This document shows positions 2,589 to 35,720 of a stretch of DNA of 57,115 bases, in pieces; the stretch's first letter is position 1; every line of letters begins with the position of its first letter. Both the position numbers and the translations under genes were made by a program. The stretch is from a virus. The stretch lies in the IMG/VR virus record IMGVR_UViG_3300009435_000003, one strand, 5' to 3'. Under the pieces are notes generated by a model. The model did not search any database. It worked only from the letters and a program-made list of their open reading frames with translations, and was not told the DNA's origin.

Positions 2589-2594
2589 ATTGAA

Positions 2595-4016: not shown

Positions 4017-4019
4017 GCC

Positions 4020-5069: not shown

Positions 5070-5078
5070 GGTGCGCGG

Positions 5079-5258: not shown

Positions 5259-5276
5259 TTAAATGAGGGTTTGAAT

Positions 5277-5450: not shown

Positions 5451-5455
5451 TCTTA

Positions 5456-16164: not shown

Positions 16165-16599
16165 ATGAGTAGACACCATCCGTCGCGCAGAAGGCGTGAC
16201 TTTAGCAAATTGAATAAACGATATGTAAAGCGTAACGACCTAAAGAAACTATCGTTAGTACTAAGAGATGTAAAACTTAACTTCGATATAGGACTGGCCG
16301 AAGTTGAGACACTTTTGTTCTGTTACGACTACGAGTTCTTCACCATCAACCATCTCTCGAAAGCCATGGGCAAGAGCAGGAAGAAGCTGTATGAAAGGAC
16401 CGTGTTGCCCCTGAAGCAAAAAGGGTACATAGAAGTAATACATCATGGCAAGGAGGTTGATTCTTACGTCAATGCCCTATTCCATGAGAAGTCCGGTAAC
16501 GAGCATAGACTCGGTTTGTCTCAATCGGGACGCATGCTTGTGCAGCGAATATACAGAAAGCTAGATGGGGGTGAGCCTATTAATCTTGAGTCTTCTTGA
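16165..16599 (+). CDS. Winged-helix (MarR-like) DNA-binding protein, opposite-strand insert
   Basis: 144 aa with a basic N-terminus and an HTH-like stretch TINHLSKAMGKSRKKLYERTVLPLKQKGYIE. Tail-to-tail 20-nt overlap with its neighbour. Confidence 0.45.
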   Translation: MSRHHPSRRRRDFSKLNKRYVKRNDLKKLSLVLRDVKLNFDIGLAEVETLLFCYDYEFFTINHLSKAMGKSRKKLYERTVLPLKQKGYIEVIHHGKEVDSYVNALFHEKSGNEHRLGLSQSGRMLVQRIYRKLDGGEPINLESS

Positions 16600-17134: not shown

Positions 17135-17146
17135 GGGCACAATATA
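17135..17146 (-). promoter_or_regulatory. -7 box variant TATATTGT + 4 nt + ATG
   Basis: + strand ACAATATA at 17139-17146. Confidence 0.4.
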
Positions 17147-17197
17147 CGGAATCTAATAGCGTTAAGGATGTAGACAAACCTTTAAACCCCTTCCATT

Positions 17198-17662
17198 ATG
17201 AAGAACATCATTTTAATTTTTGCCCTTGTCGCAAACGCAGCTTCGGCTCAGTACATGCATTTCAGAATCATACCTGACCATGACCACAACATGTTGTCAT
17301 CTTCTGACAACGATAGTGTGGAGTGGGTTGTATTCATCGACGACCTATACGAACCGTCCGAAACTCCAGACTTCAAACCGTTGCGCGAAGCGGAGTGTAT
17401 TTTTGATTCAGGCTCTACTGTCCTGAACTACAAAACGTACACACTCGGTACTCATCACCTGCTGCTACGCAATAAGATTAGTGGACAGAACATCGCATAC
17501 GCAGTCCTGCACATTGACTACAATGCCCGAGATTTTAGAATGAGCCGGGGAGGAGTGTTTACAATGTGGATTTTCGAGCACGATGACCCATACGCGGTGT
17601 ATGCACCTACACGGGAGAATGCGTGGGCTACCCCTTACTTTATTCCGGGGTTGCTGAATTAA
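17198..17662 (+). CDS. Secreted protein, unknown function, opposite-strand insert
   Basis: 154 aa with signal peptide MKNIILIFALVANAASA|Q. Confidence 0.55.
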   Translation: MKNIILIFALVANAASAQYMHFRIIPDHDHNMLSSSDNDSVEWVVFIDDLYEPSETPDFKPLREAECIFDSGSTVLNYKTYTLGTHHLLLRNKISGQNIAYAVLHIDYNARDFRMSRGGVFTMWIFEHDDPYAVYAPTRENAWATPYFIPGLLN

Positions 17663-20307: not shown

Positions 20308-21429
20308 TCAAAACCTCCGCTCTGTAATTCTCCTTACTTGCTCCTCTCTATAGAAGGGGTCTAGCTCTGCACCGAAACAAATCTGACCCCAGTTAGCCAG
20401 CACAATTTGAAGGTCGGTAACTGTAAAGAAGCCATCCCCATTTAGGTCTCCCTCAATCCAGTCTATATCTCCCAGATGCGCAAGCATCAGCATCAAGTCG
20501 TTCATACCTACAACCAAATCACCACTGATATCTCCTGCGCAATACGGGTCACCAGTCGTGAGTCCCGGCCTAGTGATTTCAATCATGTTGTGCATGCGTT
20601 CAATCTGACCAGTGGTAAAGTGTTGCCTGCATGAATCTACGTAGTAGTCCATGTGGTTATCTGGTGTATAGCTGTATAGTGCAGGAGGGCATATTGGATT
20701 TTCACAGCTCCAGTTTAGTTTTGTTGGTGGAGTGTCACAAACAAAGTCTCCTGTCTCCTCGCAATCACCGAGGTCTTGGCCGCAGTTATCTACGTTTCGA
20801 AAGACATGCTGTAGGCTTAGGAAATGTCCCACCTCATGGATAAGTGTTTTGTTCTCATCTCTATTATTCAGTAGGTGGTCTCCGAGTCTTCCGAATACAC
20901 TTGTCTTGACCCACACTCCGTCTAGCGTTGTTTGAGGTGTGTAAGCTGTCCACGCAAAACCAAGTATGCCTTGACAAAAAGCTGGGAACACATGTACATT
21001 CATTACCGTCTCCCTATCCCATACGATATCCTCTAGGTAATTATTCATAGAAATAAAGGCAAACCCATTGTAAGGAACGCAGTTAGTGTTGAGTAACGCA
21101 TAGGAATCCTCGTACTCATCAAAGTCATGGTACTCTATGGATAGTAAATCAAACTCGTACATCGCCTCCTCGAACTCCTCATTCAAATGAGCAGCTGCAT
21201 CGTTAACGACATAGGTAGGTAGATTGCTGTGGGGTATGCTGTCGGTGTGATAGATATGAATGACGTAGTTGACCGTCTTCCATTCTGGTTCATCTGGAAA
21301 GAACCCCATTGTTCTTACAGCTAAATCCTCCGGTTCCCCGAATGTGACACACTGAGAATTGACCCTGCTCACAAACAAGAGGGTAAGCATCCATAGGATG
21401 AAGATTGCATGGAACTTATAGCGTGACAT
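20308..21429 (-). CDS. Secreted M43-like (metzincin) zinc metalloprotease with C-terminal dockerin-like repeats
   Basis: Signal peptide MSRYKFHAIFILWMLTLLFVSRVNS; HEVGHFLSLQHVF (HExxHxxxxxH); two DxxGDxxxxxxDL repeats (DISGDLVVGMNDL, DLNGDGFFTVTDL). Confidence 0.7.
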   Translation of the reverse strand: MSRYKFHAIFILWMLTLLFVSRVNSQCVTFGEPEDLAVRTMGFFPDEPEWKTVNYVIHIYHTDSIPHSNLPTYVVNDAAAHLNEEFEEAMYEFDLLSIEYHDFDEYEDSYALLNTNCVPYNGFAFISMNNYLEDIVWDRETVMNVHVFPAFCQGILGFAWTAYTPQTTLDGVWVKTSVFGRLGDHLLNNRDENKTLIHEVGHFLSLQHVFRNVDNCGQDLGDCEETGDFVCDTPPTKLNWSCENPICPPALYSYTPDNHMDYYVDSCRQHFTTGQIERMHNMIEITRPGLTTGDPYCAGDISGDLVVGMNDLMLMLAHLGDIDWIEGDLNGDGFFTVTDLQIVLANWGQICFGAELDPFYREEQVRRITERRF

Positions 21430-22084
21430 GTGGTTGAGTTTAGGGTATAGCATTCCCTCGCACACTATTAGTATTCAACAAGAACGATAGCCACGTTTCC
21501 AAAAATGCTGGATGCTGTCGTAGCTATACGTGAGTGCTCCACAAGCACTCTACGTGAAGCGTTCGTTGCTAAGCTTATGCGAAGTTACACGAAAAAAATT
21601 AGAAAGTCAAGTGCTTTGACAAGATTAAAACAGTTTGAGCCATAAAAGTAGTACTTACAACCCGCATGCTAATCCGTTTTTTAGGTGAAAAAAGCGATGA
21701 GAAATGTACCCCCATGGGATTATACATACATACAGACGCTACGCCGTGCAAACCGAAACGCAATCGCTGACCCCACCCCCTGCAAACGTGTCGTGTTGCC
21801 GCCAAACATTCTAGCTTTTTGCTTGCGTGCTCTGCTGGTCTGGTCGATGGCCGTGCTCCATCCGTGGTCTGAGACATGAGGTACAGCCAGCCGATTGATG
21901 GACTAGAACCAAAGACCCAAGGCACAATCCACGCCCCTGCATTCGGTTGCTCCTATACGCTACCCACAAATGGGGCATTAACATCTGTTGGCAATTAGCT
22001 CATACTAGAACAAGATTGATATCCGTTATACACTCAACAACGCGATAGCTAAATAGATATAACATAACCCCTAACACACTGATA
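21430..22084. other. 0.65-kb non-coding divergent region between the two arms (candidate origin/control region or ncRNA)
   Basis: Only low-quality ORFs. AT-rich 21590-21720 next to GC-rich 21730-21960. Hairpins GAGTGCT-N5-AGCACTC, GTCAA-N5-TTGAC and GATGG-N7-CCATC. Confidence 0.5.
21978..22011 (+). promoter_or_regulatory. Early cassette copy A (short form): TTAACATCTGTTGGCA-N6-TCATACTAGAAC
   Basis: Box1 variant carrying an exact ATCTGTT, plus a Box3-like core; first element of the + arm. Confidence 0.45.
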
Positions 22085-22573
22085 ATGAATAAGTTAAACA
22101 TCACATACAAGCGAGGCATCAACACGATGGACTTGACAGCAGAGGGATACGGAGTCATTCAGGAGAAGGTCACCGACGTGTTCGTCGATGGTGAATTCAG
22201 AATGTTCATCTCCAAGGACGAAGTGACCAAGGAGTACACTGCATGGGAGGACAATGACAGCGAAATGTTCTCCGGAGGATTGACCTTGAGAGAGTGCAAG
22301 GAGAACGTCGAGCGAGTGCTGTTGAAGGAAGCCCGTGAGGACAACCAAGACGCATACGAGGACGCGATACTGGAGCGCAGATACATGCGTAACCTCAAGG
22401 ATGCTTGCACCACTCCAAGTGAGCGGTTCGAGGCTCAGGAAGCCATCGACATTGCTCAATCGAAGCTGGACACGTTGCAGGCTGAGTACGTTGCGATACT
22501 GGAACGCTTGAAGCCATTGATGCCAAGCCACGCAAAGAGCATGGCGCAAATTAGATTGGGTTCTGCACAATAA
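22085..22573 (+). CDS. Hypothetical early protein
   Basis: 162 aa, first gene of the + arm. Confidence 0.6.
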   Translation: MNKLNITYKRGINTMDLTAEGYGVIQEKVTDVFVDGEFRMFISKDEVTKEYTAWEDNDSEMFSGGLTLRECKENVERVLLKEAREDNQDAYEDAILERRYMRNLKDACTTPSERFEAQEAIDIAQSKLDTLQAEYVAILERLKPLMPSHAKSMAQIRLGSAQ

Positions 22574-22606
22574 AGCGAGATTGAGAAGCGTTAACACTAT
22601 AGAAAC
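22565..22606 (+). promoter_or_regulatory. Early cassette copy B: GCACAATAA-N14-GCGTTAACACTATAGAAAC
   Basis: Box2 overlaps the upstream stop codon. Box3 is the closest match to the SP6 core GACACTATAGAAG. Confidence 0.55.
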
Positions 22607-22607
22607 A

Positions 22608-22629
22608 GGGGAGGCAAATCGGTCTCCCC
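22608..22629 (+). other. 5' UTR hairpin GGGGAG-N10-CTCCCC
   Basis: Read directly; a hairpin with the same stem sits at the 3' end of the same gene. Confidence 0.6.
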
Positions 22630-22643
22630 ACAAATTGAAAGCC

Positions 22644-23585
22644 ATGAGTAAAGCAAAGAAAGACGTCTACCAGCAGGTCACCGACCGCATCATCGAGGGT
22701 CTCCAGACCAAGGGTCTCCAATGGTTCAAGCCTTGGAACGCTGGACAAGGCATGGGTGCTATGATGCCCATCAACAACACCACGGGGAAAGCCTATCGTG
22801 GTCTCAACCAGCTGTTCCTCTGCATCGAGCAGACGGCCAATGGCTACGAGCACAACGAATGGTTGACCTACAAGCAGGCGGCTAAGGCTGGCGGCAATGT
22901 AGTCAAGGGTTCTACAGGCACTGAGATTGTGTTCTGGAACATCAGCTACGTTGACCCAACGGCCAGCCCAGCTAAGTTCTACCGCAAGGTGACTGACGCT
23001 CCTGCCAGCATCCGTCCGCTGTTGAAGAAGGTCTTCAGCCCACGTCTCTGGAACGTGTTCAACATCGCCCAGTGCGAAGGTATCGAGCCACGTCGCAAGC
23101 CCGTGACTCCGGTTGAGCCAGCGGAGCAGTTCAATCCAATCGGTGAGGCTGATAAGGTGTACGCAGAGCTGTACCCCACCAAGCACAAGCCCACACTGGG
23201 TCATGGTGGAGCCAGCGCGTTCTACGCTCCAATGCGCCATCACGTCCAGATGCCCAAGCCTGAGACGTTCGTGACGAACGATGACTACTACAAGACTCTG
23301 TTCCACGAGTTGGTGCACAGCACTGGTCACGAGGATATCTTGAACCGCCTGAACAAGGTGGCCGCCTTCGGGTCTGAGGACTACAGCAAGGAGGAGTTGG
23401 TGGCTGAGATTGGTGCTCAGTTCCTCGTCGGTCTCACAGGCATCGAGCCAAAGGATGACCACGTAAACAGCCAAGCCTACGTCAACAACTGGGTGAAGCA
23501 GTTGAAGGATAAGCCGAAGATGGCTCTGTCAGCCGCGAACAAGGCAATGAAGGCTGTGGACTTCATCATGGGGGGAGAGGTGTGA
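22644..23585 (+). CDS. ardC: ArdC-like antirestriction protein (ssDNA-binding N-domain + zincin metallopeptidase)
   Basis: VYQQVTDRIIEGL..WFKPWN..TGKAYRGLNQLFL..WLTYKQAAKAGGNVVKG, then HELVHSTGH..FGSEDYSKEELVAEIGAQFL. Start re-picked at MSKAKKD. Confidence 0.85.
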   Translation: MSKAKKDVYQQVTDRIIEGLQTKGLQWFKPWNAGQGMGAMMPINNTTGKAYRGLNQLFLCIEQTANGYEHNEWLTYKQAAKAGGNVVKGSTGTEIVFWNISYVDPTASPAKFYRKVTDAPASIRPLLKKVFSPRLWNVFNIAQCEGIEPRRKPVTPVEPAEQFNPIGEADKVYAELYPTKHKPTLGHGGASAFYAPMRHHVQMPKPETFVTNDDYYKTLFHELVHSTGHEDILNRLNKVAAFGSEDYSKEELVAEIGAQFLVGLTGIEPKDDHVNSQAYVNNWVKQLKDKPKMALSAANKAMKAVDFIMGGEV

Positions 23586-23610
23586 GCCTCCCCTCCGCCC
23601 TTCGGGGCGT
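23572..23610 (+). terminator. Two tandem GC hairpins after ardC (GGGGAG-N10-CTCCCC, then CGCCC-TTCG-GGGCG)
   Basis: Read directly; followed by TTAACATTAATT. Coordinates +/-1. Confidence 0.5.
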
Positions 23611-23674
23611 TAACATTAATTCACAAGTAACGCACAATAAAACGAATACATCCAGCGTTACTACTATAGAAACG
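23610..23674 (+). promoter_or_regulatory. Early cassette copy C
   Basis: TTAACATTAATTCACA-N6-GCACAATAA-N14-GCGTTACTACTATAGAAAC, with a GTAACGC/GCGTTAC stem. Coordinates +/-1. Confidence 0.55.
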
Positions 23675-23681
23675 AGAGAAC

Positions 23682-24017
23682 ATGAAAAAATACGACTCAA
23701 CACCGATTGCATACGCAAGCTACCCAAACACCGGAGTAGTCCGAACTGACCGCAAGTTCCGCGCCACAATCCAGTTCCACACTGGGAGCGCATGGAGCAA
23801 AGGGACATGGGCTTGCTCGAAGACGTTCAACAACGAGAGCCACATAGACAACTTCATCGCATACATGGAGAGGACTAAGGGTTGGAACGTCGATGAGGTA
23901 TGGTATGGAAAGAACCTGACTCCCCTTGAGGACTCTTGGGCGTATGCTGGCGATGCTGTAAAAAAGAAGTTTCACAAGCCTAATGGCTGGAAGGCTAGAC
24001 GCTCTGCCGGATACTAA
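23682..24017 (+). CDS. Hypothetical early protein
   Basis: 111 aa, own cassette. Confidence 0.6.
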   Translation: MKKYDSTPIAYASYPNTGVVRTDRKFRATIQFHTGSAWSKGTWACSKTFNNESHIDNFIAYMERTKGWNVDEVWYGKNLTPLEDSWAYAGDAVKKKFHKPNGWKARRSAGY

Positions 24018-24080
24018 TTAACATCCGTTAACAACCTGAGCACAATAACAAGAAGCCCTTCTGCGTTATTACTATAGAAG
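24018..24080 (+). promoter_or_regulatory. Early cassette copy D (full consensus)
   Basis: TTAACATCCGTTAACA-N6-GCACAATAA-N14-GCGTTATTACTATAGAAG; ATG at 24100. Confidence 0.6.
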
Positions 24081-24099
24081 CCACCAATAGATAAATTAC

Positions 24100-24393
24100 A
24101 TGGGACAGAAAGCAATTCAAATAGACACGATGACATGCGGACAGCACTTCCTTCCCGCCATCTTTAACGGGGACACCGAGTCCCTAGGCGCACACGAAGA
24201 GTATCTCTTGGAGCGCGAGGTGAGGTGGTATCAGATGCAGGGAGAGGAGGACTACCCCAACTTCGTTAGCATCGAGTTCGAGTGCACATCAAGCGAGCGA
24301 TACATGTGCGGATGTGACCTAACAGGGCATCTCGGTGAATGTGTAGAGGTGAAGGTCTTTGTGTTCCTAGATGAGAACTACGTGAAAGATTAA
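24100..24393 (+). CDS. Hypothetical early protein
   Basis: 97 aa, Cys/His-containing. Confidence 0.6.
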   Translation: MGQKAIQIDTMTCGQHFLPAIFNGDTESLGAHEEYLLEREVRWYQMQGEEDYPNFVSIEFECTSSERYMCGCDLTGHLGECVEVKVFVFLDENYVKD

Positions 24394-24451
24394 CATCCGT
24401 TAACAGACTGCGCACAATAACAGCAAACCTGCCGCGTTATTACTAAAGAAG
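24390..24451 (+). promoter_or_regulatory. Early cassette copy E
   Basis: Box1 contains the upstream TAA stop. Box3 variant is GCGTTATTACTAAAGAAG. Confidence 0.6.
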
Positions 24452-24473
24452 ACATCATTAAAAACAATTCAAT

Positions 24474-25679
24474 ATGAGAGTTACCACGAAAAACAACAAG
24501 GCCTTCACGCCTGATTCCAAGTCAGCCATCATCGCACTTGTGAGGTTACGACGTTCGTCATTCCAAAGCATCTACAAGGTTGAGCAAGCAATCAGAGATG
24601 AGTACATCAAGCTTACAGCTAACAGCTTCGGTGTCATCCCAGCAGATTACTATCAACTACAAAAGCCCGTCAACGCTAAGGCAATGGCAAAGGCTAGATT
24701 GGCTGTAATTGGGGGGACAAGTACTACTATTTGCAGGCGATTCCTTGAGGTCGTACCAAATATGTCTGACTACACGATATCGCTGTGTGAACAGGGTGAG
24801 GCTGTATTAGAGGAGGCAAACGGCAACGGGTCAAGCCATTCAGCTTACAGCAATCGAGTAAGTGAGTATGACCTGAATCGAGTCTTAGAATTTGTCTTGG
24901 AGAAGAAGCACCTTGATAACCAAGAGCTACTGGACTACAACGAAGACGTTAAGAGGTCTATTAAACGGGGCAAGTATCTCAAGGCGGTGCGCGAAGGTGA
25001 CCCTCTGCGTGCTGGGCTGGAGGAAGGTCAGGTGTGCTATGAGTTCACTGATGCCGTGTTCGATGACCACATCGACATGTTCACCAATGTGCTGTTCATT
25101 GGTCACCAACTGCGTGTTGTGAAGGATACAGATTGCAACATGTACACCATTCAAAAACTGACCACCAACGCCCATGAACCATGGAGAACAGTTGGATTCG
25201 AGGACAAGTTGTACGATGTTATCGTTGGGTTATCTGGCACATTGCTAAACAAGGAGCTAAGGGCTGTAGAGTCAGCCGTTCGACAATGCGAGCGAGGTCA
25301 ACCTATGATTCAAGACCTATTCACACCGGATGAGATTCGACAACTGGCTGATACCCAGTGCGTGCAACTGCCAAAGCAGACTACGTTTTCTGTAGTGAAA
25401 GTTGGCACAGAGTCTTTCGGGTGCGTTGAATGCTCTAAGGTCAAGCCAGAGGCGAACGTGATTGCATCTGGACTCAAGTATGAGGATGCTGATAAGTTGC
25501 GAGGCTTATCATCCAAAGACGCTGAAGCAAAGCGACGAGTGGAGAAAAAAGCCAATCGCATCAACAACATGAGAGAACAGCTCGTTCAAGAAAGGGCTGA
25601 GTTGGTTAAGCTGGAGGAGGAGCAAGAGCAAGCTGAAAGCAACTTGACTAATCACCAGAACCAAATACAGGCGGCATGA
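24474..25679 (+). CDS. Hypothetical early protein with C-terminal coiled coil
   Basis: 401 aa, no motif recognised. Confidence 0.65.
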   Translation: MRVTTKNNKAFTPDSKSAIIALVRLRRSSFQSIYKVEQAIRDEYIKLTANSFGVIPADYYQLQKPVNAKAMAKARLAVIGGTSTTICRRFLEVVPNMSDYTISLCEQGEAVLEEANGNGSSHSAYSNRVSEYDLNRVLEFVLEKKHLDNQELLDYNEDVKRSIKRGKYLKAVREGDPLRAGLEEGQVCYEFTDAVFDDHIDMFTNVLFIGHQLRVVKDTDCNMYTIQKLTTNAHEPWRTVGFEDKLYDVIVGLSGTLLNKELRAVESAVRQCERGQPMIQDLFTPDEIRQLADTQCVQLPKQTTFSVVKVGTESFGCVECSKVKPEANVIASGLKYEDADKLRGLSSKDAEAKRRVEKKANRINNMREQLVQERAELVKLEEEQEQAESNLTNHQNQIQAA

Positions 25680-25843
25680 TATTCGATAACGCACACAACC
25701 CATTCATCGAGCTTGACCTATCGAAGGAAGAGCTGGTGGAAGCATACAACTTCTTCCAAGGAGTTGACCTAGAATCCCAGATGCTAGTAGCTGATGCACT
25801 TGATGCTAAGTACAGCCTGATGGAGTTAATTAACATCCGTTAA
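25676..25843 (+). CDS. Small acidic protein (55 aa, below the track cutoff)
   Basis: ATGA-coupled to the upstream gene: MIFDNAHNPFIELDLSKEELVEAYNFFQGVDLESQMLVADALDAKYSLMELINIR*. The stop lies inside Box1. Confidence 0.5.
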   Translation: MIFDNAHNPFIELDLSKEELVEAYNFFQGVDLESQMLVADALDAKYSLMELINIR

Positions 25844-25892
25844 CAAACGACGGACAATATCTCAGAACACGGTGCGTTCTAACTATAGAAAC
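25830..25892 (+). promoter_or_regulatory. Early cassette copy F
   Basis: TTAACATCCGTTAACA-N6-GGACAATAT-N13-GCGTTCTAACTATAGAAAC, with hairpin AGAAC-N7-GTTCT. Confidence 0.6.
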
Positions 25893-25911
25893 ACCACAAA
25901 AACAATTCACC

Positions 25912-26157
25912 ATGATTAAAATCATTTTAACAACAGAAGACGGATGGGACTGCGCTCCCGCCATCATGGAGGTATCCGAGCTACTACCACATGCTCGTGA
26001 GATGCACTACGAGATTCAGTGTTGCAAGAGAAGCATGAGCGCGAAGGATATGCTTAGTGACCTGAACGATTTCGTTACCGACCTCAAGCAAAGGATAGAC
26101 GATGCCGCTGAAGAATTAGAAGGAGTTGAATTTCAAACCGTTGAAGATGAAGAGTAA
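25912..26157 (+). CDS. Hypothetical early protein
   Basis: 81 aa, acidic. Confidence 0.6.
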   Translation: MIKIILTTEDGWDCAPAIMEVSELLPHAREMHYEIQCCKRSMSAKDMLSDLNDFVTDLKQRIDDAAEELEGVEFQTVEDEE

Positions 26158-26377
26158 AGCCGCAATCCCAGAGAAAGGTCAGTTGACCGACATGATTATA
26201 AACTTCGAGGAGCAACAGTGTACCATCGAAGAGATACTGGAGTTGTTCTCCGTGCTCATCCAGACTGGCATGGCATGGTCTCTTCAGGGTAGCTACGGGC
26301 GGTTGGCTCGTCACCTCATCGACCAAGGAAGTTTATCCGATGATGGCACAATAACTCACGAGTTCCTGCCGTTCTAA
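26147..26377 (+). CDS. Hypothetical early protein
   Basis: ATG (MKSKAAIPEKG) overlaps the upstream gene by 11 nt; the track start is TTG. Confidence 0.55.
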   Translation: MKSKAAIPEKGQLTDMIINFEEQQCTIEEILELFSVLIQTGMAWSLQGSYGRLARHLIDQGSLSDDGTITHEFLPF

Positions 26378-26387
26378 TTATAGAAAC
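26346..26387 (+). promoter_or_regulatory. Early cassette copy G (Box2+Box3 embedded in the end of the upstream CDS)
   Basis: GCACAATAA-N13-GCCGTTCTAATTATAGAAAC; the TAA stop lies inside Box3. Confidence 0.5.
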
Positions 26388-26403
26388 CAAAAAACAATTC
26401 AAT

Positions 26404-26637
26404 ATGAGTATGTTCGATAAAACCCCACGTCACTTCAGCGTGACACAAAACAAGGCCACCGAAGCCGGAGTCATGAAGATTCAAATCGGAAAGCTTGAGC
26501 TGTCAATCACAACGCTCAACGGAATCAATGAAGCTGTGGTGTTCTCAGAGAGCGGAGACCAAGTTTCTGAGACTAAGTTCACAGATTTCAACGAGGTCAT
26601 CTCGTTATTCTGGAAGCTGGAATCACTCGACATTTAA
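26404..26637 (+). CDS. Hypothetical early protein
   Basis: 77 aa, conserved leader. Confidence 0.6.
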   Translation: MSMFDKTPRHFSVTQNKATEAGVMKIQIGKLELSITTLNGINEAVVFSESGDQVSETKFTDFNEVISLFWKLESLDI

Positions 26638-26663
26638 GTTAAACCCCCAAAAAACAATTCACC

Positions 26664-27143
26664 ATGGGATTAGATATGTACCTGACTCGTAACCACTATG
26701 TGCGGAACTGGAGTCACCGACCAGACAGAGACTACAAGGTCTCTGCGAAGATGAACAACAAGCGTGTACCCTTCCTCGGAAGCGTAGGCGAAGTGACCAG
26801 CATCCGTGAGGAGGTGCTGTGCTGGAGAAAAGCCAACGCCATCCACAAGTGGTTCGTTGACAACGTGCAGGACGGAGATGATGACTGCGGGAAATACTAC
26901 GTAGGTATCGAGCAACTACAAGAGTTGCGACACGCCTGCCTTGCCGTCATCGCATCGCCAGAGCGAGCCGAAGAACTACTACCTACGCAAAGTGGGTTCT
27001 TCTACGGGAGCACAGAGTTTGATGAGTACTACTTGGAGGACTTGCGTATGACCGCAAAGACTATCGAGAAGCTCGTGAAACAGCAAATCCAAGCCAAGGA
27101 CATGAAGCACTCGATGGACTTCGAGTACAGCTCATCTTGGTAA
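26664..27143 (+). CDS. Hypothetical protein (MGLDMYL.. / WRKANAIHKWF family seen in many phages, function unknown)
   Basis: 159 aa, conserved leader. Confidence 0.6.
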   Translation: MGLDMYLTRNHYVRNWSHRPDRDYKVSAKMNNKRVPFLGSVGEVTSIREEVLCWRKANAIHKWFVDNVQDGDDDCGKYYVGIEQLQELRHACLAVIASPERAEELLPTQSGFFYGSTEFDEYYLEDLRMTAKTIEKLVKQQIQAKDMKHSMDFEYSSSW

Positions 27144-27206
27144 TTAACATCCGTTAACAAGCGGAGCACAATAACCCAGAAAGTCTGGCGTTATAGATAG
27201 AGAAAC
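27144..27206 (+). promoter_or_regulatory. Early cassette copy I
   Basis: TTAACATCCGTTAACA-N6-GCACAATAA-N13-GCGTTATAGATAGAGAAAC, with hairpin ATAACCCAGA-aag-TCTGGcGTTAT. Confidence 0.55.
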
Positions 27207-27222
27207 CAAAAAACATTTCATT

Positions 27223-27627
27223 ATGAGTGAAGTAAATAGTAATATCGAGTGGACGGATGAGGCAATGATGGCCTTCTGTCAAGTGTATGCAGGCAACATC
27301 AATTCGCCACGACTGCCAATGCAAATCAGCTACAAGAAGTATCACAAGCTGAAGATTAATGAGAAGCTGGAAGCATTCAAGCGAGACTGGTCAGAGTACC
27401 AGCGTAAGCTTAAGTTTCCCTTCAGTGAGGGAGATGAGCATTGGGTGCTGGGTGGTGATGGCATCCTCCGCTACAGCGTATGGGACGACGTGTCCGAGGA
27501 AGACCACATGGCCAACCCCGACCTCAGGTACTTCACCTTTGAGCAGGGCATAGACATGGCTCGTCGCAACGGAATCCTGAACGACTACAACAGCCTGATT
27601 GGTCTTCTAAAAGCCCCAACGCCATGA
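27223..27627 (+). CDS. Hypothetical protein
   Basis: 134 aa. Confidence 0.6.
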   Translation: MSEVNSNIEWTDEAMMAFCQVYAGNINSPRLPMQISYKKYHKLKINEKLEAFKRDWSEYQRKLKFPFSEGDEHWVLGGDGILRYSVWDDVSEEDHMANPDLRYFTFEQGIDMARRNGILNDYNSLIGLLKAPTP

Positions 27628-27911
27628 GTTACGAGTCATTCCGCAACAGAGAGACGTGGTTGGTCAACGTCTGGGGTTTTGTTGATGGTCTCGCAGAGAC
27701 CTACATCGACACCGAGAATCCGAACGACCTAACGGGAGTAACCCCTCAGTGGTGTAGAGATTGCTTCGACATGATAGTCGAGGATACCTACAACAAATTA
27801 CCTAACGGAATCCTCAAGGACTTCGTTGATGGATGCCTTCAGACAATCGACTGGCACGAGCTGTCAATGACGGTGAAGGACACAATAAAAGAGCAACGAG
27901 AGACGTTGTAG
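27624..27911 (+). CDS. Hypothetical protein
   Basis: 95 aa, ATGA-coupled. Confidence 0.6.
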   Translation: MSYESFRNRETWLVNVWGFVDGLAETYIDTENPNDLTGVTPQWCRDCFDMIVEDTYNKLPNGILKDFVDGCLQTIDWHELSMTVKDTIKEQRETL

Positions 27912-27937
27912 CTGTATAAAACATAACCCCTTTTACA

Positions 27938-28156
27938 ATGAGTAATACAACAGAAGATATGAGCCGTGAGGATACGATGGCAATGCACTTCGAGCTTCAC
28001 GACAGCAAGACAGTGTGCCGTCTGTTCCTTGATGTTTGTCGCAGGTACGACCTAGGTAACATAGACCAGAGCCAAATGGTGCAGGCATGCATGCTGGTCG
28101 CAGACGAAGCAGAAAAACTTGGGTTGCGAGACCCCCTAAAAGAATGGGAGTTATGA
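27938..28156 (+). CDS. Hypothetical protein
   Basis: 72 aa. Confidence 0.55.
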   Translation: MSNTTEDMSREDTMAMHFELHDSKTVCRLFLDVCRRYDLGNIDQSQMVQACMLVADEAEKLGLRDPLKEWEL

Positions 28157-28425
28157 ATGAAGCAATTAACATGTGGAAAAAAATGTGCAGTAATCTGTTG
28201 AAAATGTCACGGAAAACATCGAACTTTGCAAAAGCGGTTCACGTCGAGAGGCAAGCTTACAGCAACCTGATACGACAACAGGGTGTACTGCTTGATGAAT
28301 ACGAAGATTTAGTTAAAGCCTATGAAGAGAACAATCAAGATGCTGATAGCGTCACCCCTACTCCTCCTGTCAATCCTACTACACCCAGTAGTGATACTAC
28401 AAGGATGGATAATGAAAGAAGTTGA
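28153..28425 (+). CDS. Hypothetical protein
   Basis: ATG (MNEAINMW) is ATGA-coupled; the upstream part of the track ORF overlaps the previous gene. Confidence 0.55.
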   Translation: MNEAINMWKKMCSNLLKMSRKTSNFAKAVHVERQAYSNLIRQQGVLLDEYEDLVKAYEENNQDADSVTPTPPVNPTTPSSDTTRMDNERS

Positions 28426-28444
28426 ATCCTTTATTAAATAGAAT

Positions 28445-28963
28445 ATGTCACAACACAAATTCAAGACCACGAACATCCGTGGCAAGCAATACGTCGAAGT
28501 AAACGAGCGTATTAAATTCTTCCGACAGGAAGACCAGTACAAGAACTGGACAATCTCCACAGAAATCAACATGATGGATACCGGAGACGAGTGTATCTGT
28601 AAATGCCTGATTGCCGACCCCGAACAACGAGTCATAGCCACAGGTCATGCACATGAAGTGAAGTCATCGAGTAACATCAACAAGACATCCTTCGTGGAGA
28701 ACTGCGAGACATCGGCTGTAGGTAGAGCACTTGCGATGATGGGGATTGGGATAGATGCCAGCATTGCCTCAGCTAACGAGGTCAAGGAAGCTATCGCTAA
28801 ACAAGACGAGCCAGAGGATATTGAGCGTGACTACCAAAAGGCAGTGACCTACCTCAAGAATGCTAAAGACCGTAAGGATGCTTGGACTAAGATTGAAAAG
28901 CAATCTAAGACTAAGTTCAGCAAGGCTCAGTACAGCAAACTAGTGGAATACTCCGAAGCCTGA
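28445..28963 (+). CDS. Single-strand annealing protein (Rad52/ERF-like), putative
   Basis: 172 aa; ENCETSAVGRALAMMGIGI motif. Immediately upstream of, and TGATG-coupled to, a PD-(D/E)XK exonuclease. Confidence 0.5.
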   Translation: MSQHKFKTTNIRGKQYVEVNERIKFFRQEDQYKNWTISTEINMMDTGDECICKCLIADPEQRVIATGHAHEVKSSSNINKTSFVENCETSAVGRALAMMGIGIDASIASANEVKEAIAKQDEPEDIERDYQKAVTYLKNAKDRKDAWTKIEKQSKTKFSKAQYSKLVEYSEA

Positions 28964-29727
28964 TGTTGTCAGTTCAATTAGCAGAAGCCGTAGGTAAGGG
29001 TCACTTATCATACAGCTCAGTAAAGTACGCACTACAAGACATGCGCTTGTGGGAGATGTACATGAGGGGACAACTCTTCAAAGAGAGTGAAGCCCTGACG
29101 TTCGGAAGTATGTACGATTGCCTTCTGTTTACACCGGAGGATTTCGATAAGCAATTCTTAGTGCTCAATGACAGCGCAAAGTGTGAGGAGATTGGTGGTC
29201 GTGCACCACGTATGACTAACAAGTACAAGGCTTGGGTTAAGGACTTCCAAGAGGAGGCCGAAGAAAAGAAAGTCAAGCTCATTGGTCAGGACGATTTCAA
29301 GAAAGCTCAAGAAATGATTGAGCGATTGAAGGTGACTGGTGTAATGGAGGAGTACCTCATCGGTGATTACCAACATGAGTTCAATAAGGAAATCTCAGGC
29401 GTTCCAGTACGTGGATTCTTGGATTGCCTGAACAAGGACTACATCAGTGACCATAAGACCACCCGTAGCCTATCGGCATTCCGTTACGCGGTAAGAGACT
29501 ACGGTTACGACATCCAAGCTTACATCTACTGTAGCGTGCTGGGTTTGGATAAGTTCTACTGGGTAGCACAAGAGAAGGCGTATCCCTACGTCATCGGTGT
29601 TTACCAAGCCAGTGATGAAACCATTGAGAATGGTAAGGTGAAGTTTGATAAGGCAGTAGAAAGAATTACTCGGTACTTGGACAATAACCTTGAGACAGAG
29701 ACGTTCTACATCAAAGGACTAATCTGA
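28963..29727 (+). CDS. PD-(D/E)XK exonuclease (RecE/YqaJ/Cas4-like recombination exonuclease)
   Basis: 254 aa; GFLDCLNKDYISDHKTT (D...D-x-K) and a downstream YDIQAYIY motif. Confidence 0.6.
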   Translation: MLSVQLAEAVGKGHLSYSSVKYALQDMRLWEMYMRGQLFKESEALTFGSMYDCLLFTPEDFDKQFLVLNDSAKCEEIGGRAPRMTNKYKAWVKDFQEEAEEKKVKLIGQDDFKKAQEMIERLKVTGVMEEYLIGDYQHEFNKEISGVPVRGFLDCLNKDYISDHKTTRSLSAFRYAVRDYGYDIQAYIYCSVLGLDKFYWVAQEKAYPYVIGVYQASDETIENGKVKFDKAVERITRYLDNNLETETFYIKGLI

Positions 29728-29996
29728 TGAATGCACAAGAGCTAATCACACGAGCAAACCTGCACTTCGGTATCGACGTTACCAAGTGTAAGGACTTTGG
29801 CAAGGACGGTTTCACTGACCGATGCTTTACAGCATACTATGCCATCACTGAATTGAAGATGCCCTACAAGGAGCTGGCTGATGCCATGGACGAACAGGAC
29901 AGAACTAAGCTACGCCTCATGTGGCTGTATGCTGAAGGACTTATGGGAGTTGTACAATCCCGCAACCGGTACAAGCAGTTTACATTAACCTTTTAA
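29727..29996 (+). CDS. Hypothetical protein
   Basis: 89 aa, TGATG-coupled. Confidence 0.55.
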   Translation: MNAQELITRANLHFGIDVTKCKDFGKDGFTDRCFTAYYAITELKMPYKELADAMDEQDRTKLRLMWLYAEGLMGVVQSRNRYKQFTLTF

Positions 29997-30006
29997 TTTT
30001 TTAGAC

Positions 30007-30267
30007 ATGGCTGATAACAGCAACGTGTATGTGGGATACACTGAATCCCCACGAGTAAACCAGCGAGTATCATTCACGCTGGAGGAGTTAGACAACCTCA
30101 AGCAGTACGCAACTGCAAAGGGTAGAGTTTACATTGATGTTGTCTCTGTCCCAGACCGAGAAGACAATCGAAAGATGAAAGCTTTCTGCTCTGTGTACGA
30201 CCCGAATAGTCAGGGTGAACAGCAGCGCAAGGTAGACAAGCAAAGCACTTCTGAAGTGCCGTTCTAA
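30007..30267 (+). CDS. Hypothetical protein
   Basis: 86 aa; the C-terminal ..VPF* codons coincide with a Box3-like CCGTTCTAA. Confidence 0.55.
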   Translation: MADNSNVYVGYTESPRVNQRVSFTLEELDNLKQYATAKGRVYIDVVSVPDREDNRKMKAFCSVYDPNSQGEQQRKVDKQSTSEVPF

Positions 30268-30332
30268 ATAGTGGTTAGGATATAGATAGACCGCAAGGGG
30301 GGAGTCAGTTTCGTGAATTGTTCTGGCTCCCC
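30259..30332 (+). promoter_or_regulatory. Degenerate Box3-like element plus GGGGAG-N22-CTCCCC hairpin upstream of the tRNA
   Basis: CCGTTCTAAATAGTGGTTAGGATATAGATAGACC, then the hairpin at 30297-30332. Confidence 0.3.
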
Positions 30333-30339
30333 TCGCTAT

Positions 30340-30413
30340 GCTCTCGTAGCTCAACTGGATAGAGCATCACCCTTCTAAGGTGAATGTTGCAGGTTCGAGT
30401 CCTGCCGGGAGTA
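30340..30413 (+). tRNA. tRNA-Arg: tRNA-Arg (anticodon UCU)
   Basis: Hand-folded cloverleaf: acceptor GCTCTCG/CGGGAGT (2 G-U pairs), D arm GCTC/GAGC, anticodon arm TCACC-cTTCTaa-GGTGA, T arm GCAGG-TTCGAGT-CCTGC, discriminator A, no encoded CCA. Confidence 0.85.
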
Positions 30414-30428
30414 CAAAATTTTATTTCA

Positions 30429-31040
30429 ATGGACATCTTCAGACAAACATACCAAACCTACATCGAGGCTATCGGTGCAGAACCAAACAACTCAAGGACA
30501 CGGCAGCAAGTAGAGATAAGGGCAGCGTTTGCCAATGCTACATCAGCCTTCTTTCACCACAGCGTGTGTTCAAACCTGTTCAATAAAGACAGGACAACCA
30601 TCTACCATTACAAGCAGAGTCATGAGATGTATTTTGTCTCAAGCCCTGAATACAGAACGTACTTCGAAACAGCCTCTCGAATCGTACTAGAAAAGCTGGA
30701 CTCCTTCAAGAAGGAAGACTTAAATTTAGAGGCTCAAAACTTTCTTTCTCCTCATGAGCAAATTGATACAATCAAAGGCATCATCGAAACCCTCGAAACC
30801 TTCAAAGACCGAATCCAAATCAGACTCAGACGCTATAAACCCGGAACACTACAAGAAGGGGGGCAAGCAAGTGTGGCAGATGATGATAGATATCTGGGGC
30901 AAAGACTCATACATCGCGTTCTGCGAGATGAACGTCTTCAAGTACCGCATGCGGGCAGGGAACAAGCCGGGGAACAGCTTGGAGCAGGACATGAAGAAAG
31001 CAAAGTGGTACGAGAACCAGATACAACAGTTGCGCGATGA
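30429..31040 (+). CDS. DnaA-domain-IV-like HTH protein; its 3' ~290 nt overlap the DUF3310 gene in another frame
   Basis: ATG (MDIFRQ) lies just after the tRNA. NKDRTTIYHYKQ resembles the DnaA C-terminal RDHTTVLHA motif. The C-terminal 95 aa look like out-of-frame sequence. Confidence 0.45.
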   Translation: MDIFRQTYQTYIEAIGAEPNNSRTRQQVEIRAAFANATSAFFHHSVCSNLFNKDRTTIYHYKQSHEMYFVSSPEYRTYFETASRIVLEKLDSFKKEDLNLEAQNFLSPHEQIDTIKGIIETLETFKDRIQIRLRRYKPGTLQEGGQASVADDDRYLGQRLIHRVLRDERLQVPHAGREQAGEQLGAGHEESKVVREPDTTVAR

Positions 31041-31128
31041 ACAATCAAAAGGTAACCATCTATCCAACAATCTATCGCACACAGGAGGCAGTAATTACAT
31101 CGCTGGATACAGTTCTAACGAGGATTAA
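30754..31128 (+). CDS. DUF3310-family protein
   Basis: INPEHYKKGGKQVWQMMIDIWG..FCEMNVFKYRMRAGNKPG..QDMKKAKWYENQI fits the DUF3310 pattern. The last 92 nt overlap the primase gene. Confidence 0.65.
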   Translation: MSKLIQSKASSKPSKPSKTESKSDSDAINPEHYKKGGKQVWQMMIDIWGKDSYIAFCEMNVFKYRMRAGNKPGNSLEQDMKKAKWYENQIQQLRDEQSKGNHLSNNLSHTGGSNYIAGYSSNED

Positions 31129-32833
31129 AGAAGGTAAGAGTCAACCAAAGGTTGAACTAATAAGGGAGGGTGACAAAGCTATTAAGCAAGAGCTACCTGC
31201 GGTATGTTTTAGTGGAGTCTTTGAGAAGAACAAGCGAAGCGATGACAGCTTAAAGTTTCACAGCGGCTTGGTAATTCTAGACTTTGACCATGTTGACGTA
31301 GCAAGAACTAAGTCTGCCTTAGCTGGAGACAAGTACATCATGTCGTGCTGGGCATCACCCAGCGGTGAGGGTGTTAAAGGTTTAGTCGAGATAACAAACA
31401 CGGAGAGACATCGTGACCACTACCGCTCACTGATTAAATACTTCGACGAGCAGTATGGTCTTGAGTTAGACAGCACCGGAGAGAATGAAAGCCGAGCGTG
31501 CTTTGAGTCATACGACCCAGACATCGTTGTCAAGGCTGAGTACGAGAGGTATGGCGGCATGATGTCAGAGCATTCTCAAAATCAAGTCGTTAAAGACTTG
31601 TCTGGGAGGACTGACTTCAATAAGATAAACATAGCAGCAGCTATGATACGCAAGGCGGAGGAAGGAGAGAAGCATAACGTCCTTGTCAAGGCTTCCAGTT
31701 TAATGGGTGGGTACATTGCCAGTGGCATTGTTGAAGAAGATGTTGCTCGCTGGATACTCGAAAGAGAGATTCAGAAGCGGGACATTGACAATTTGGAGGG
31801 GGCTTTACTGACTATTAATGACGGGATAGCAAACGGAAAGAAGCTACCTATCAGTGAGGTCATCAGTAGCGAAGAGAAGATTAAGAGAGACATGAAACTG
31901 AATGATGGGGACATGTCCTTTATCAGCAGTGACGATGTTGATTACGATTGGATTGAGCAGTATGTGGATGGCAAGATACCCCTAGGTCTTAGCACAGGAA
32001 ACCAATTCATGGATGAGAACTTCGTATTCAAAAAGGAGTTCGTTATGATTAATGGTCACAGTAATATCGGTAAGACAACCTTTGCGCTGTGGATGATGGT
32101 GGCAAGTTCAATGCATCACAACTGGAGGTGGGTAATCTACAGCTCAGAGAACCGCTCTGCTGCCGTGAAGATGAAGCTGGTTCAGTTTGCGCTGAATAAG
32201 AAGATTGGTAGCACCACACACATCGAACGTAAAAAAGCTAGGGACTGGGTTGAGAAGCACTTCGTTGTAATCGACAACAGCAAGACCTACAGTTACATGG
32301 ACATCATCCTGTTCTGTGAGAAGGTGCACAGGCAGAACCCGATTGACGGCTTGTTTGTTGACCCATACAACAGCCTTAAGATTGAGATGAGTGCTAACCG
32401 TGGAGTCGGCCCTCATGAGTATCACTATGAAGCAGCTTCAGAGTTTCTGACCTTCAGCAATAACATGGATGTAGCTGTATGGGTTAACGCTCACAGTATT
32501 ACTGAGAGCCAGCGCAGGAAAGGCGATGACGGTTTGCAAGTCGCTCCTTACGCAGAGGATACTGAGCATGGTGGAAAGTGGGTGAATCGTAGTGACTGCT
32601 TCATCACGTTACACAGAAAGATTCAGCACCCCGATGTTCTCCAGCGCAGGTGTATTGAGATGCATGTTCGAAAGGTTCGAGAGGTGGACACTGGTGGTAA
32701 GCCCACTCCCTACGCTCAGCCAATGATTTTTGAATTGAACTCAACACAGAGTGGATTTTCTATGCACGCTCCCAACCAAAAGCTATTCACATCTCTTGGT
32801 GAACAACTTGTTGGCAAACAAGAGCACTTCTAA
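31037..32833 (+). CDS. Primase-helicase (BT4734/VirE-N-like primase domain + RecA/DnaB-type P-loop ATPase)
   Basis: 598 aa. LPAVCFSGVF..GLVILDFDH..CWASPSGEGVKG, then Walker A GHSNIGKTT and Walker B LFVDPYNSL. Confidence 0.65.
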   Translation: MNNQKVTIYPTIYRTQEAVITSLDTVLTRIKEGKSQPKVELIREGDKAIKQELPAVCFSGVFEKNKRSDDSLKFHSGLVILDFDHVDVARTKSALAGDKYIMSCWASPSGEGVKGLVEITNTERHRDHYRSLIKYFDEQYGLELDSTGENESRACFESYDPDIVVKAEYERYGGMMSEHSQNQVVKDLSGRTDFNKINIAAAMIRKAEEGEKHNVLVKASSLMGGYIASGIVEEDVARWILEREIQKRDIDNLEGALLTINDGIANGKKLPISEVISSEEKIKRDMKLNDGDMSFISSDDVDYDWIEQYVDGKIPLGLSTGNQFMDENFVFKKEFVMINGHSNIGKTTFALWMMVASSMHHNWRWVIYSSENRSAAVKMKLVQFALNKKIGSTTHIERKKARDWVEKHFVVIDNSKTYSYMDIILFCEKVHRQNPIDGLFVDPYNSLKIEMSANRGVGPHEYHYEAASEFLTFSNNMDVAVWVNAHSITESQRRKGDDGLQVAPYAEDTEHGGKWVNRSDCFITLHRKIQHPDVLQRRCIEMHVRKVREVDTGGKPTPYAQPMIFELNSTQSGFSMHAPNQKLFTSLGEQLVGKQEHF

Positions 32834-32849
32834 CCGTACCTTTTAGGGT

Positions 32850-33332
32850 ATGGCTAAACGCCGGAAGAACTTAACAAGACCAACGAAGGGAAGGAAGCGC
32901 AAAGACCTCAGTAGGGGTTCAGTAAAGCTGAAGTCAACTCTTGAGACCTACTGTTACGACAGGTTGAAGGAATCAAAGATTGATTTTGGATATGAGAGCG
33001 AGACATTTCAGTTGATGGACTCGTTTAGGTATCCCGGAGTTTACCATAAGTCTACGAGGGGTAAGGATGTTATGACGGATGCGACAAACAAGGTGGTGCT
33101 TTCGATTAAGTACACTCCAGACTTTGTTAGCCACGAGAATCGTTTCATTATTGAGACGAAGGGGTGGGTTCCATCACAGCACACTTTTCCTTTAAGGTGG
33201 AAGCTGTTTTTAAAGTACATGTCAGACAATGACATGGATGACTACATGCTTTTCATCCCTAAAAACAAAAAGCAAATAGATGCCGCGATAACAATCATAC
33301 TGAACCACATCAATGGAGAAGCAAAAACTTAG
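32850..33332 (+). CDS. T7 endonuclease I-like Holliday junction resolvase
   Basis: YTPDFVSHENRFIIETKGW compares with T7 gp3 YTPDF..FVETKG. Confidence 0.65.
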   Translation: MAKRRKNLTRPTKGRKRKDLSRGSVKLKSTLETYCYDRLKESKIDFGYESETFQLMDSFRYPGVYHKSTRGKDVMTDATNKVVLSIKYTPDFVSHENRFIIETKGWVPSQHTFPLRWKLFLKYMSDNDMDDYMLFIPKNKKQIDAAITIILNHINGEAKT

Positions 33333-33546
33333 TCAGCTCTACAGCTACTGTACTCAGGAGATACAGAGGTTGACTACGGAGCTGTACGAGCAGCTTCACG
33401 ACAACAAGGGTGCACCAGTCACGAACTGGGAGCAAACGCTTGACGACGTAAGAAAGTACAAGAAACTAGTAATCTTGGAGCTTGAAGCAATGAAGCACGC
33501 TCTTAGGGAATACATAGAAGAATCAGATGGCGAGCAGCTTCCGTAA
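33313..33546 (+). CDS. Hypothetical protein
   Basis: 77 aa, helical. Confidence 0.5.
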   Translation: MEKQKLSQLYSYCTQEIQRLTTELYEQLHDNKGAPVTNWEQTLDDVRKYKKLVILELEAMKHALREYIEESDGEQLP

Positions 33547-35693: not shown

Positions 35694-35720
35694 CCCCTGC
35701 TCTTCGGAGCGGGGGTTTTT
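35694..35720 (+). terminator. Rho-independent terminator closing the + arm (at the convergence point)
   Basis: CCCCTGCTC-TTCG-GAGCGGGGG, a 9-bp stem with tetraloop, followed by TTTTTG. Confidence 0.8.

Follow-up and report, generated by a model that had tools for sequence, protein, structure and literature searches.

The stretch analysed here (IMG/VR virus record IMGVR_UViG_3300009435_000003, 57,115 nt; from now on the window, meaning its whole length) represents an almost complete genome of a podophage, about 57 kb long and with a G+C content of 45-49%. Many of its plus-strand early genes are preceded by a repeated composite element, referred to as the cassette, which we propose to be a promoter of the type recognized by extracytoplasmic function (ECF) sigma factors of the host. 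The genes are laid out in the following blocks:

49-21465, minus strand: structural and lysis arm, encoding a capsid-like protein, tail fibres, portal, large terminase, a GroES-like protein and endolysin
22085-35632, plus strand: early arm, encoding an ArdC-like anti-restriction protein, a PD-(D/E)XK exonuclease, tRNA-Arg and a primase-helicase
35850-56973, minus strand: second minus-strand block, with open reading frames (ORFs) of 3286, 548 and 306 aa and a 1777-aa protein carrying a crAssvirus muzzle C-terminal domain

A full cassette consists of Box 1, Box 2 and Box 3. Box 1 (TTAACATCCGTTAACA) has four exact copies, at 24018, 24390, 25830 and 27144, and one further copy with 3 mismatches at 21978, all on the plus strand and against a chance expectation of 0.45. 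Box 2 and Box 3 lie where an earlier annotation of this DNA, referred to as the original prediction, had placed them (22566/22589, 23633/23656, 24041/24064, 24413/24435, 25853/25875, 26347/26370 and 27167/27189), and the bipartite core ACAATA-N15/16-CGTT matches 11 times, 11/11 on the plus strand, with 0.15 matches expected. The repeated composite element before plus-strand genes is thus real, strand-specific and far above chance. In the copies listed here, predicted transcription starts follow a rule taken from mapped Flavobacterium promoters, which places the C of CGTT at -12:

21978-22042, plus strand: cassette A, degenerate; Box 1-like TTAACATCTGTTGGCA 21978-21993, Box 2-like CATACTAG 22001-22008, CGTT 22024-22027, A at +12 = 22036; precedes the first gene of the plus-strand arm (ATG 22085)
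22566-22606, plus strand: cassette B, without Box 1; CACAATAA 22566-22573, N15, CGTT 22589-22592, TAGAAAC 22600-22606, predicted start A22601; ArdC-like anti-restriction gene 22644-23585
23610-23673, plus strand: cassette C; degenerate Box 1 23610-23625, CACAATAA 23633-23640, CGTT 23656-23659, TAGAAAC 23667-23673, predicted start A23668; gene 23682
24018-24081, plus strand: cassette D; Box 1 24018-24033, CACAATAA 24041-24048, CGTT 24064-24067, TAGAAGC 24075-24081, predicted start A24076; gene 24100
24390-24452, plus strand: cassette E; Box 1 24390-24405, CACAATAA 24413-24420, CGTT 24435-24438, AAGAAGA 24446-24452, predicted start A24447; gene 24474 (401 aa)
25830-25892, plus strand: cassette F; Box 1 25830-25845, GACAATAT 25853-25860, CGTT 25875-25878, TAGAAAC 25886-25892, predicted start A25887; gene 25912
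26347-26387, plus strand: cassette G, without Box 1; CACAATAA 26347-26354, CGTT 26370-26373, TAGAAAC 26381-26387, predicted start A26382; gene 26404
27144-27206, plus strand: cassette I; Box 1 27144-27159, CACAATAA 27167-27174, CGTT 27189-27192, GAGAAAC 27200-27206, predicted start A27201; gene 27223
27881-27921, plus strand: cassette J; CACAATAA 27881-27888, N15, CGTT 27904-27907, TATAAAA 27915-27921; gene 27938
17138-17177, plus strand: putative cassette-like promoter in the late arm; CACAATAT, N14, CGTT 17160-17163, TAGACAA
29680-29719, plus strand: possible internal promoter; GACAATAA, N14, CGTT 29702-29705
30220-30275, plus strand: weak, mis-spaced cassette-like stretch; CCGTTCTAAATAG at 30259, preceded by the hairpin GCACTTCtgaAGTGC; upstream of tRNA-Arg(TCT) at 30340-30414

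Copies A to G and I of the original prediction were recovered, including B and G without Box 1 and C with a degenerate one, but cassette J and the copies at 17138-17177 and 29680-29719 had been missed. Copy A does exist at 21978 and is in fact a degenerate full cassette, its CGTT (22024) standing at the right spacing; the counterparts in two relatives, L011 (at 220) and L013 (at 616), are full cassettes. The upstream portion of cassette G overlaps coding sequence. The copy at 29680-29719 falls inside the DUF3799 exonuclease gene, at its 3' end, and before gene 29727, a layout repeated in L011, L012 and L013 whose conservation coding constraint may account for. Before the tRNA gene, CCGTTCTAAATAG is present as predicted, but the upstream box is poor and mis-spaced, and it is doubtful that this stretch is a member of the set. 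Downstream of the copy in the late arm, a plus-strand ORF (17198-17662) adjoins the endolysin gene; it has a signal-peptide-like N-terminus (MKNIILIFALVANAASA), is conserved at 60% identity in the relative L032 and could encode an early membrane or exclusion protein.

Comparison with relatives, carried out on pieces of about 20 kb, redefines the element as (g)CACAATA(A/T)-N14/15-CGTT-N7-TAGAAAC with an optional upstream repeat, TTAACA-N4-TTAACA, corresponding to Box 1. Conservation in related genomes, which had been suggested as a check, was found in L002-L007, L011, L012, L013 and L017. The close relatives L002-L007 (84-95% identity in the 401-aa protein) keep all boxes while their spacers drift, and the more distant carriers L013, L011, L012 and L017 show helicase identities of 78%, 68%, 60% and 59%, respectively. 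A logo of 31 copies from the window, L011, L012, L013 and L017 reads (g)CACAATA(A/T), 14 or 15 unconserved nt in roughly equal numbers, CGTT, 7 weakly conserved nt and TAGAAAC(C). These copies were picked by a pattern requiring CACAATAA (<=2 mismatches) and CGT[TG], so that conservation of both boxes is partly built in; TAGAAAC lies outside the picking pattern, and its A is found 12 nt from the C of CGTT in 29/31 copies. CGTT is replaced by CGTC in L017 and once by CGTG. A flexibility of 1 nt in the spacer between two boxes is typical of sigma factor recognition.

The two halves of Box 1, (G)TTAACA-N4-(G)TTAACA, repeat directly with a 10-bp period, and the 4 nt between them vary freely (TCCG, CTAG, CCAG, CGAG, CCGA, GCCG). 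Box 1 is missing from many copies; where present, it stands 6 nt from Box 2 in L011, L013 and the window and 0-1 nt from it in L012 and L017. The original prediction had further described each early gene as a terminator-promoter unit; this part was not upheld, as no intrinsic-terminator-like sites were found at the cassettes and such hairpins occur only after the ArdC-like gene (two, at about 23566-23608). Another hairpin, GGGGAGgcaaatcggtCTCCCC, is located at 22608-22629 in the predicted 5' leader of that gene and is kept in L013, with a similar one in L011. A short hairpin including CGTT is possible in about 30% of copies (mean z -1.0 over 33 copies); here the bases directly upstream of CGTT complement it, as in GAACGcacaCGTTC (window 27175-27193 and 27893-27909; L011 4189-4206).

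A different class of promoter sequence marks the late genes. TAnnTTTG, the -7 box of Bacteroidota sigma-A promoters, which have TTTG at -33, lies no more than 60 nt from the start of 10/37 minus-strand genes and 0/29 plus-strand genes, in line with the original statement that host-type boxes are used on the other arm. The box often ends 4-5 nt from the ATG, for example at the minus-strand starts 18870, 20273, 46613 and 49180, which suggests leaderless or very-short-leader late mRNAs. TAnnTTTG also precedes the experimentally defined middle promoters of Cellulophaga phage phi14:2 that are read by host RNA polymerase (bioRxiv 10.1101/2020.03.07.982082). The boxes on the late genes thus point to a Bacteroidota host whose primary sigma would serve these genes. 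The early arm, for its part, depends wholly on the cassettes, and since none of its genes carries a sigma-A box, the factor that reads them must either be present in the cell beforehand or be brought in by the virion.

The early-promoter type is not uniform among relatives. In L015 and L016, with helicase identities of 57% and 54%, the early genes follow host-type TAAATTTG boxes and cassettes are absent, which indicates that the type switches within the phage family. In the distant relative MW202828 (L008), a perfect 16-bp palindrome, GTGTCGTTAACGACAC, stands 16-39 nt before eight early genes (1540-6900); CGTTAAC is common to this palindrome and to Box 1 and Box 3 of the window, and the palindrome could represent a different early-promoter or operator system. 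The elemovirus early region showed no repeated element.

The best-matching mapped promoters come from Flavobacterium psychrophilum. Its transcription start site map yielded six promoter motifs, of which three are TAnnTTTG variants for sigma-A, one is of the sigma-54 type and another, SM6, was assigned by its authors to ECF-type sigma factors (PMC9723704). SM6 is found at genes for the secretion system of type IX (T9SS) and gliding (gldN, porU, a PG0189 homologue), for Band-7 proteins and for an ECF sigma/anti-sigma pair; examples in Table S2 are GTAAC-N16-CGTATAAC, ACAAC-N16-CGTTTATAG, ATACT-N16-CGTTTCTAC, ACAAT-N16-CGTTTTAG (gldN) and GTAAC-N16-CGTCTTAC (PMC9723704). These examples have the geometry xxAAY-N16-CGT, with the C of CGT at -12 in 5/5 promoters recovered, the start index having been verified with two overlapping gldN rows. 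The gldN promoter, ACAATaatagtttaagaatttCGTT, reads ACAATAA-N14-CGTT (PMC9723704) and is identical to the phage core. The phage core as a whole (ACAAT+AA+N14/15+CGTT) is like SM6 in its pentamer class, its 16/17-nt spacer and its -10 core: ACAAT followed by 16/17 nt and CGTT is present in all phage copies, matching the xxAAC/xxAAY class of -35 sequences, and CGTT (or CGTC/CGTG) is present in every copy, CGT[TG] being part of the picking pattern. What the phage copies have beyond SM6 is an invariant CAC..T, the conserved start region TAGAAAC and the optional TTAACA repeat. In phages that bear cassettes, the sense strand of the early arm has 9, 8, 9, 11 and 5 occurrences of ACAAY-N16/17-CGTH, where about 0.8 would be expected, and the antisense strand 0-1; no such enrichment was seen in L015, L016, MW202828 or an elemo phage.

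The -12 rule predicts that the phage transcripts begin with the near-invariant A of TAGAAAC and have leaders of 13-43 nt; the G originally proposed is the next base. One L011 copy, with CGTT 12 nt before the ATG, would give a leaderless message, in accordance with initiation at +12. A conserved A-rich stretch, AAAAACAATTCA(A/C)(T/C), is found immediately 5' of the ATG at 24456-24473, 25895-25911, 26388-26403, 26646-26663 and 27207-27222, one of these belonging to the cassette-less gene 26664, and is probably a Shine-Dalgarno-independent translation-initiation signal.

The distribution of the element was assessed with a strict cassette pattern. It matched 51 stretches in IMG/VR, 35 of them in the window's phage family, while the other 16 represent four independent chance-like events, 13 being one inherited coding sequence. 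In 596 Gb of representative genomes (GTDB) there were 38 single matches, about the chance number and none phage-related; the strict pattern includes the phage-specific start region, and the GTDB result therefore says nothing on host promoters without that region. Taken together, the two scans indicate that the complete element, start region included, is specific to the window's phage family, which keeps the involvement of a factor carried in the virion alive as an alternative.

We hypothesize that the cassettes are promoters of the entire early plus-strand arm and belong to the ECF-sigma type. In this view, a -35-like (c)ACAAT(aa) is separated by 16/17 nt from a -10-like CGTT, whose C lies at -12, and transcription begins on the A of TAGAAAC. 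The cassettes would be read by the host multisubunit RNA polymerase together with an alternative ECF-type sigma that the cell already contains when infected, for which the sigma serving T9SS/gliding genes such as gldN is the most attractive candidate, and the late minus-strand genes would then use the host primary sigma-A via TAnnTTTG. Box 1, optional and centred near -51, would most likely be an UP-like element or a site upstream of the promoter to which an accessory protein binds. The original prediction had named, as its alternative, a bipartite promoter of ECF-sigma-like type used by the host enzyme, which is favoured by the comparative and literature evidence; we give the proposal that host RNA polymerase reads the early arm with an ECF-type sigma, possibly that of T9SS/gliding genes, about an even chance of being correct. 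gldN is among the most highly expressed genes of F. psychrophilum (PMC9723704), and a suitable ECF holoenzyme could therefore be present in uninfected cells. In Porphyromonas gingivalis the ECF sigma SigP, together with PorX/PorY, controls T9SS genes (PMC4800418). This system is alike in employing a Bacteroidota ECF sigma for T9SS genes, the regulon of the best-matching promoter gldN (= porN), but differs in that there is no shared defined promoter consensus, and its connection with the phage is purely inferred.

Several points weigh against this proposal. The comparison promoters come from one other species and were themselves computationally assigned to sigma-ECF; they drive genes of the bacterium F. 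psychrophilum, whereas the phage copies drive early genes of the phage. The -35 pentamer ends in T in all phage copies, in place of the classical ECF C seen in 3/5 SM6 examples. Neither the strongly conserved TAGAAAC, which keeps a constant distance of 7 nt to CGTT, nor Box 1 is known from ECF promoters; both are more typical of promoters for phage polymerases. The hairpin including CGTT in about 30% of copies is unexplained by an ECF model. As a rule, ECF regulons comprise few genes and are under the control of anti-sigma factors, and a lytic phage relying on one would be unusual. Finally, the limitation of the full cassette in IMG/VR to one phage family leaves room for a specificity factor supplied by the phage.

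Genes for such a factor were searched for in the window. No single-subunit RNA polymerase was found in Pfam, PHROGs or the PDB, nor by hhalign to the polymerase domain of the N4 virion RNA polymerase (vRNAP), in accordance with the original remark that no T7-like polymerase ORF exists; no two-barrel RNA polymerase was detectable in the ORFs of the window, and Pfam and PHROG scans of about 55 ORFs revealed no sigma70 r2/r4 domain. A dedicated polymerase, part of the headline of the original prediction, is not supported. The DFDxD motif (D[FYW]DxD) is absent from every long ORF of the window, its single match lying in a 13-codon frame, and from the giant protein of MW202828; as positive control served phi14:2 gp66, with DFDID at 1361. 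The original prediction gave 598 aa as the length of the largest plus-strand ORF, which is correct, but overlooked a much longer one on the minus strand:

36753-46613, minus strand: giant ORF of 3286 aa with its own TAttTTTG promoter and a HEAFH (HExxH) metallopeptidase motif

This ORF had no Pfam, PHROG or PDB sequence match, and two segment profiles run against the PDB also gave none. A 13-sequence profile did not align with phi14:2 gp66 in hhalign (probability 0.3%). Against N4 vRNAP, hhalign gave a weak alignment of the glycine-rich aa 355-570 to the N-terminal domain (probability 16%) and no alignment with the polymerase domain. AlphaFold2 models from shallow alignments were poor, with predicted local distance difference test (pLDDT) values of 49 for aa 700-1850 and 53 for aa 2090-3286, the latter, C-terminal 1200 aa being modelled as almost all-helical; Foldseek searches of the PDB with these models returned nothing below E = 0.3, which is uninformative rather than negative. 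The modules of the ORF are reordered among giant homologues of 2300-5700 aa that carry LPD38, RadC and GNAT domains as well as PF18760, which we take to be ART-PolyVal. Shuffled modules are a signature of injected 'polyvalent' proteins (PMC5512222), and the 3286-aa ORF looks like a candidate modular polyvalent ejection protein. Nothing points to a hidden polymerase or targeting factor, though one might still be present.

A polymerase or specificity factor delivered with the virion in the manner of N4 or crAss-like phages, concealed within the 3286-aa ORF or some other virion protein of uncharacterised function, is in our view unlikely yet the alternative to be taken most seriously. The phage is distantly crAss-related, and in phi14:2 the early genes are read by the virion RNA polymerase gp66 and the middle and late genes by host sigma-A (bioRxiv 10.1101/2020.03.07.982082). 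In the window, early and late genes are divided in the same way, with a related virion module, TTG/TAnnTTTG host promoters on late genes and early genes that do not use sigma-A boxes; the giant ORF adjoins the muzzle gene, as gp66 lies in a block upstream of the tail genes, and the confinement of the motif to one phage family with a fixed start region fits a factor of the phage's own, as does the weak likeness of aa 355-570 to the vRNAP N-terminal domain. The early transcripts of phi14:2, however, have no common upstream motif, whereas the window has a strong one, and gp66 has DFDID whereas no such protein is detectable here. The giant ORF further lacks a match to gp66, to the N4 polymerase domain and in Pfam, PHROGs and the PDB, its modules are shuffled among homologues that carry LPD38, RadC and GNAT domains, as in polyvalent proteins, its C-terminal part is predicted to be almost all-helical and its structure models are too poor for fold searches to inform. 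L015, moreover, retains the C-terminal half of the giant protein yet has sigma-A-type early promoters. N4-type hairpin promoters have a stem of 5-7 bp and a 3-nt loop and are read by a polymerase with a central T7-like domain. The window resembles this system in encoding a giant protein, the packaging of which is predicted, and in the short CGTT hairpin of some copies, to which the perfect palindrome of MW202828 may be added; it differs in that the hairpin is not general among cassettes and no N4-type polymerase domain was detected. The narrower idea that the 3286-aa or another virion protein holds an unrecognised RNA polymerase or sigma-like module mimicking host ECF promoter geometry we regard as distinctly improbable.

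The remaining explanations concern the boxes themselves. That the repeats are primarily operators or recombination cassettes, i.e. sites for a regulator or joints for the shuffling of early genes, would suit the direct repeat of Box 1, whose 10-bp period is typical of protein-binding sites, the palindrome before 8 early genes of MW202828, the winged-helix-like protein encoded at 16165-16599 and an extra gene in L002 that has cassettes on both flanks. The strict orientation, the consistent position relative to start codons, the lack of any other promoter on the arm and an architecture that matches mapped promoters exactly leave this only a slim chance as the primary role, although such a role may well coexist with promoter function. 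The protein in question (plus strand, inside the minus-strand late arm) is a basic 144-aa protein with weak winged-helix matches (DUF6293_C, TrmB) that is conserved in relatives; it is a candidate regulator and possibly binds Box 1. MW202828 has a plus-strand 'repressor' gene in a comparable position. Very unlikely, in turn, is a sigma-70-like promoter made of Box 1 and Box 2 (-35 TTAACA, 17 nt, -10 CACAAT) with Box 3 as a transcribed leader element, even though a consensus scan flags TTAACA-17-CACAAT with 9/12 matches in five copies. Cassettes B, G and J and many copies in relatives retain Box 2 and Box 3 without Box 1, and the shift of the Box 1-Box 2 gap from 6 nt to 0-1 nt in L012 and L017 breaks the 17-nt spacing; Box 1 is therefore not a -35 element for a '-10' in Box 2. 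Bacteroidota sigma-A, moreover, does not use this consensus, and the late genes here carry TAnnTTTG. A sigma-54 reading of Box 2 was also tried and rejected, as the GG at -24 is not conserved and TTGC is missing. Least probable of all are T7/SP6-type promoters for a single-subunit phage polymerase with Box 1 as a class II pause or termination site, as first proposed, an idea largely refuted by the comparative sequence data. Box 3 of the window does read ACTATAGAA, which is SP6-like, and CGTT-N7-TAGAAAC forms a fixed-phase block of about 18 bp that runs into a conserved start region as in T7, SP6 and T3. The TATAG of this core, however, is confined to the window lineage; relatives that keep the element have CTAG, TTAG or GTAG in its place (CTAGAAAC, TTAGAAAC or GTAGAAAC). 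T7/SP6-type promoters are contiguous over about 23 bp (-17..+6), with TATA before +1 and without an upstream element, and the obligatory upstream box (near -35) at a flexible 14/15 nt is alien to them. The bases ATCYGTT, read as the T7 pause heptamer, extend over the 4 nt in the middle of Box 1 that vary freely, the cassettes lack accompanying terminator signals and no cognate single-subunit polymerase gene was found.

If the ECF proposal is true, a widespread family of aquatic Bacteroidota phages with genomes of about 57-60 kb ties its whole early programme to an alternative sigma of the host and shifts from this sigma (early) to sigma-A (late). In the searchable literature, no account was found of a lytic phage whose early genes are under ECF-type promoters. 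Gliding-motility mutants of flavobacteria are phage-resistant; as the best-matching promoter belongs to the T9SS/gliding regulon, the success of infection would hinge on the same physiological state in which the receptor is displayed. If, instead, a virion-borne activity were responsible, an abundant family of aquatic Bacteroidota phages would possess injected transcription machinery of a new kind. For Bacteroidota genetics, the element is also a source of promoter parts that are compact and orthogonal.

The kinship of the phage was examined separately. The nearest relative of its large terminase is that of the uncultured 60.8-kb phage MW202828 (46%), followed by those of Flavobacterium 'elemo' phages (41%) and then of Cellulophaga and crAss-like phages. 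The terminase, the portal and the muzzle domain (PF25729, within the 1777-aa ORF) indicate, at the sequence level, that the phage is distantly crAss-related, and a near-identity search among phage records gave no match for the window. The primase-helicase has more than 1600 metagenome homologues at E <= 1e-10, many on contigs of 55-61 kb and some from Tara Oceans; only part of this family carries the cassette.

An Rfam scan of the window reported nothing beyond the tRNA. The divergent late and early arms are separated by a gene-poor gap of about 620 bp (21466-22084) with no convincing gene, which could be an origin or encode a non-coding RNA; in phi14:2, non-coding early regions are highly transcribed (bioRxiv 10.1101/2020.03.07.982082). 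At the adjoining end of the late arm, the minus-strand gene at 20308-21465 encodes a peptidase M43 domain together with a weak, sub-threshold dockerin-like match and is also present in L013 and L016. At the opposite, convergent junction, a terminator-like hairpin with a T-run (35701-35715, plus strand) ends the early arm.

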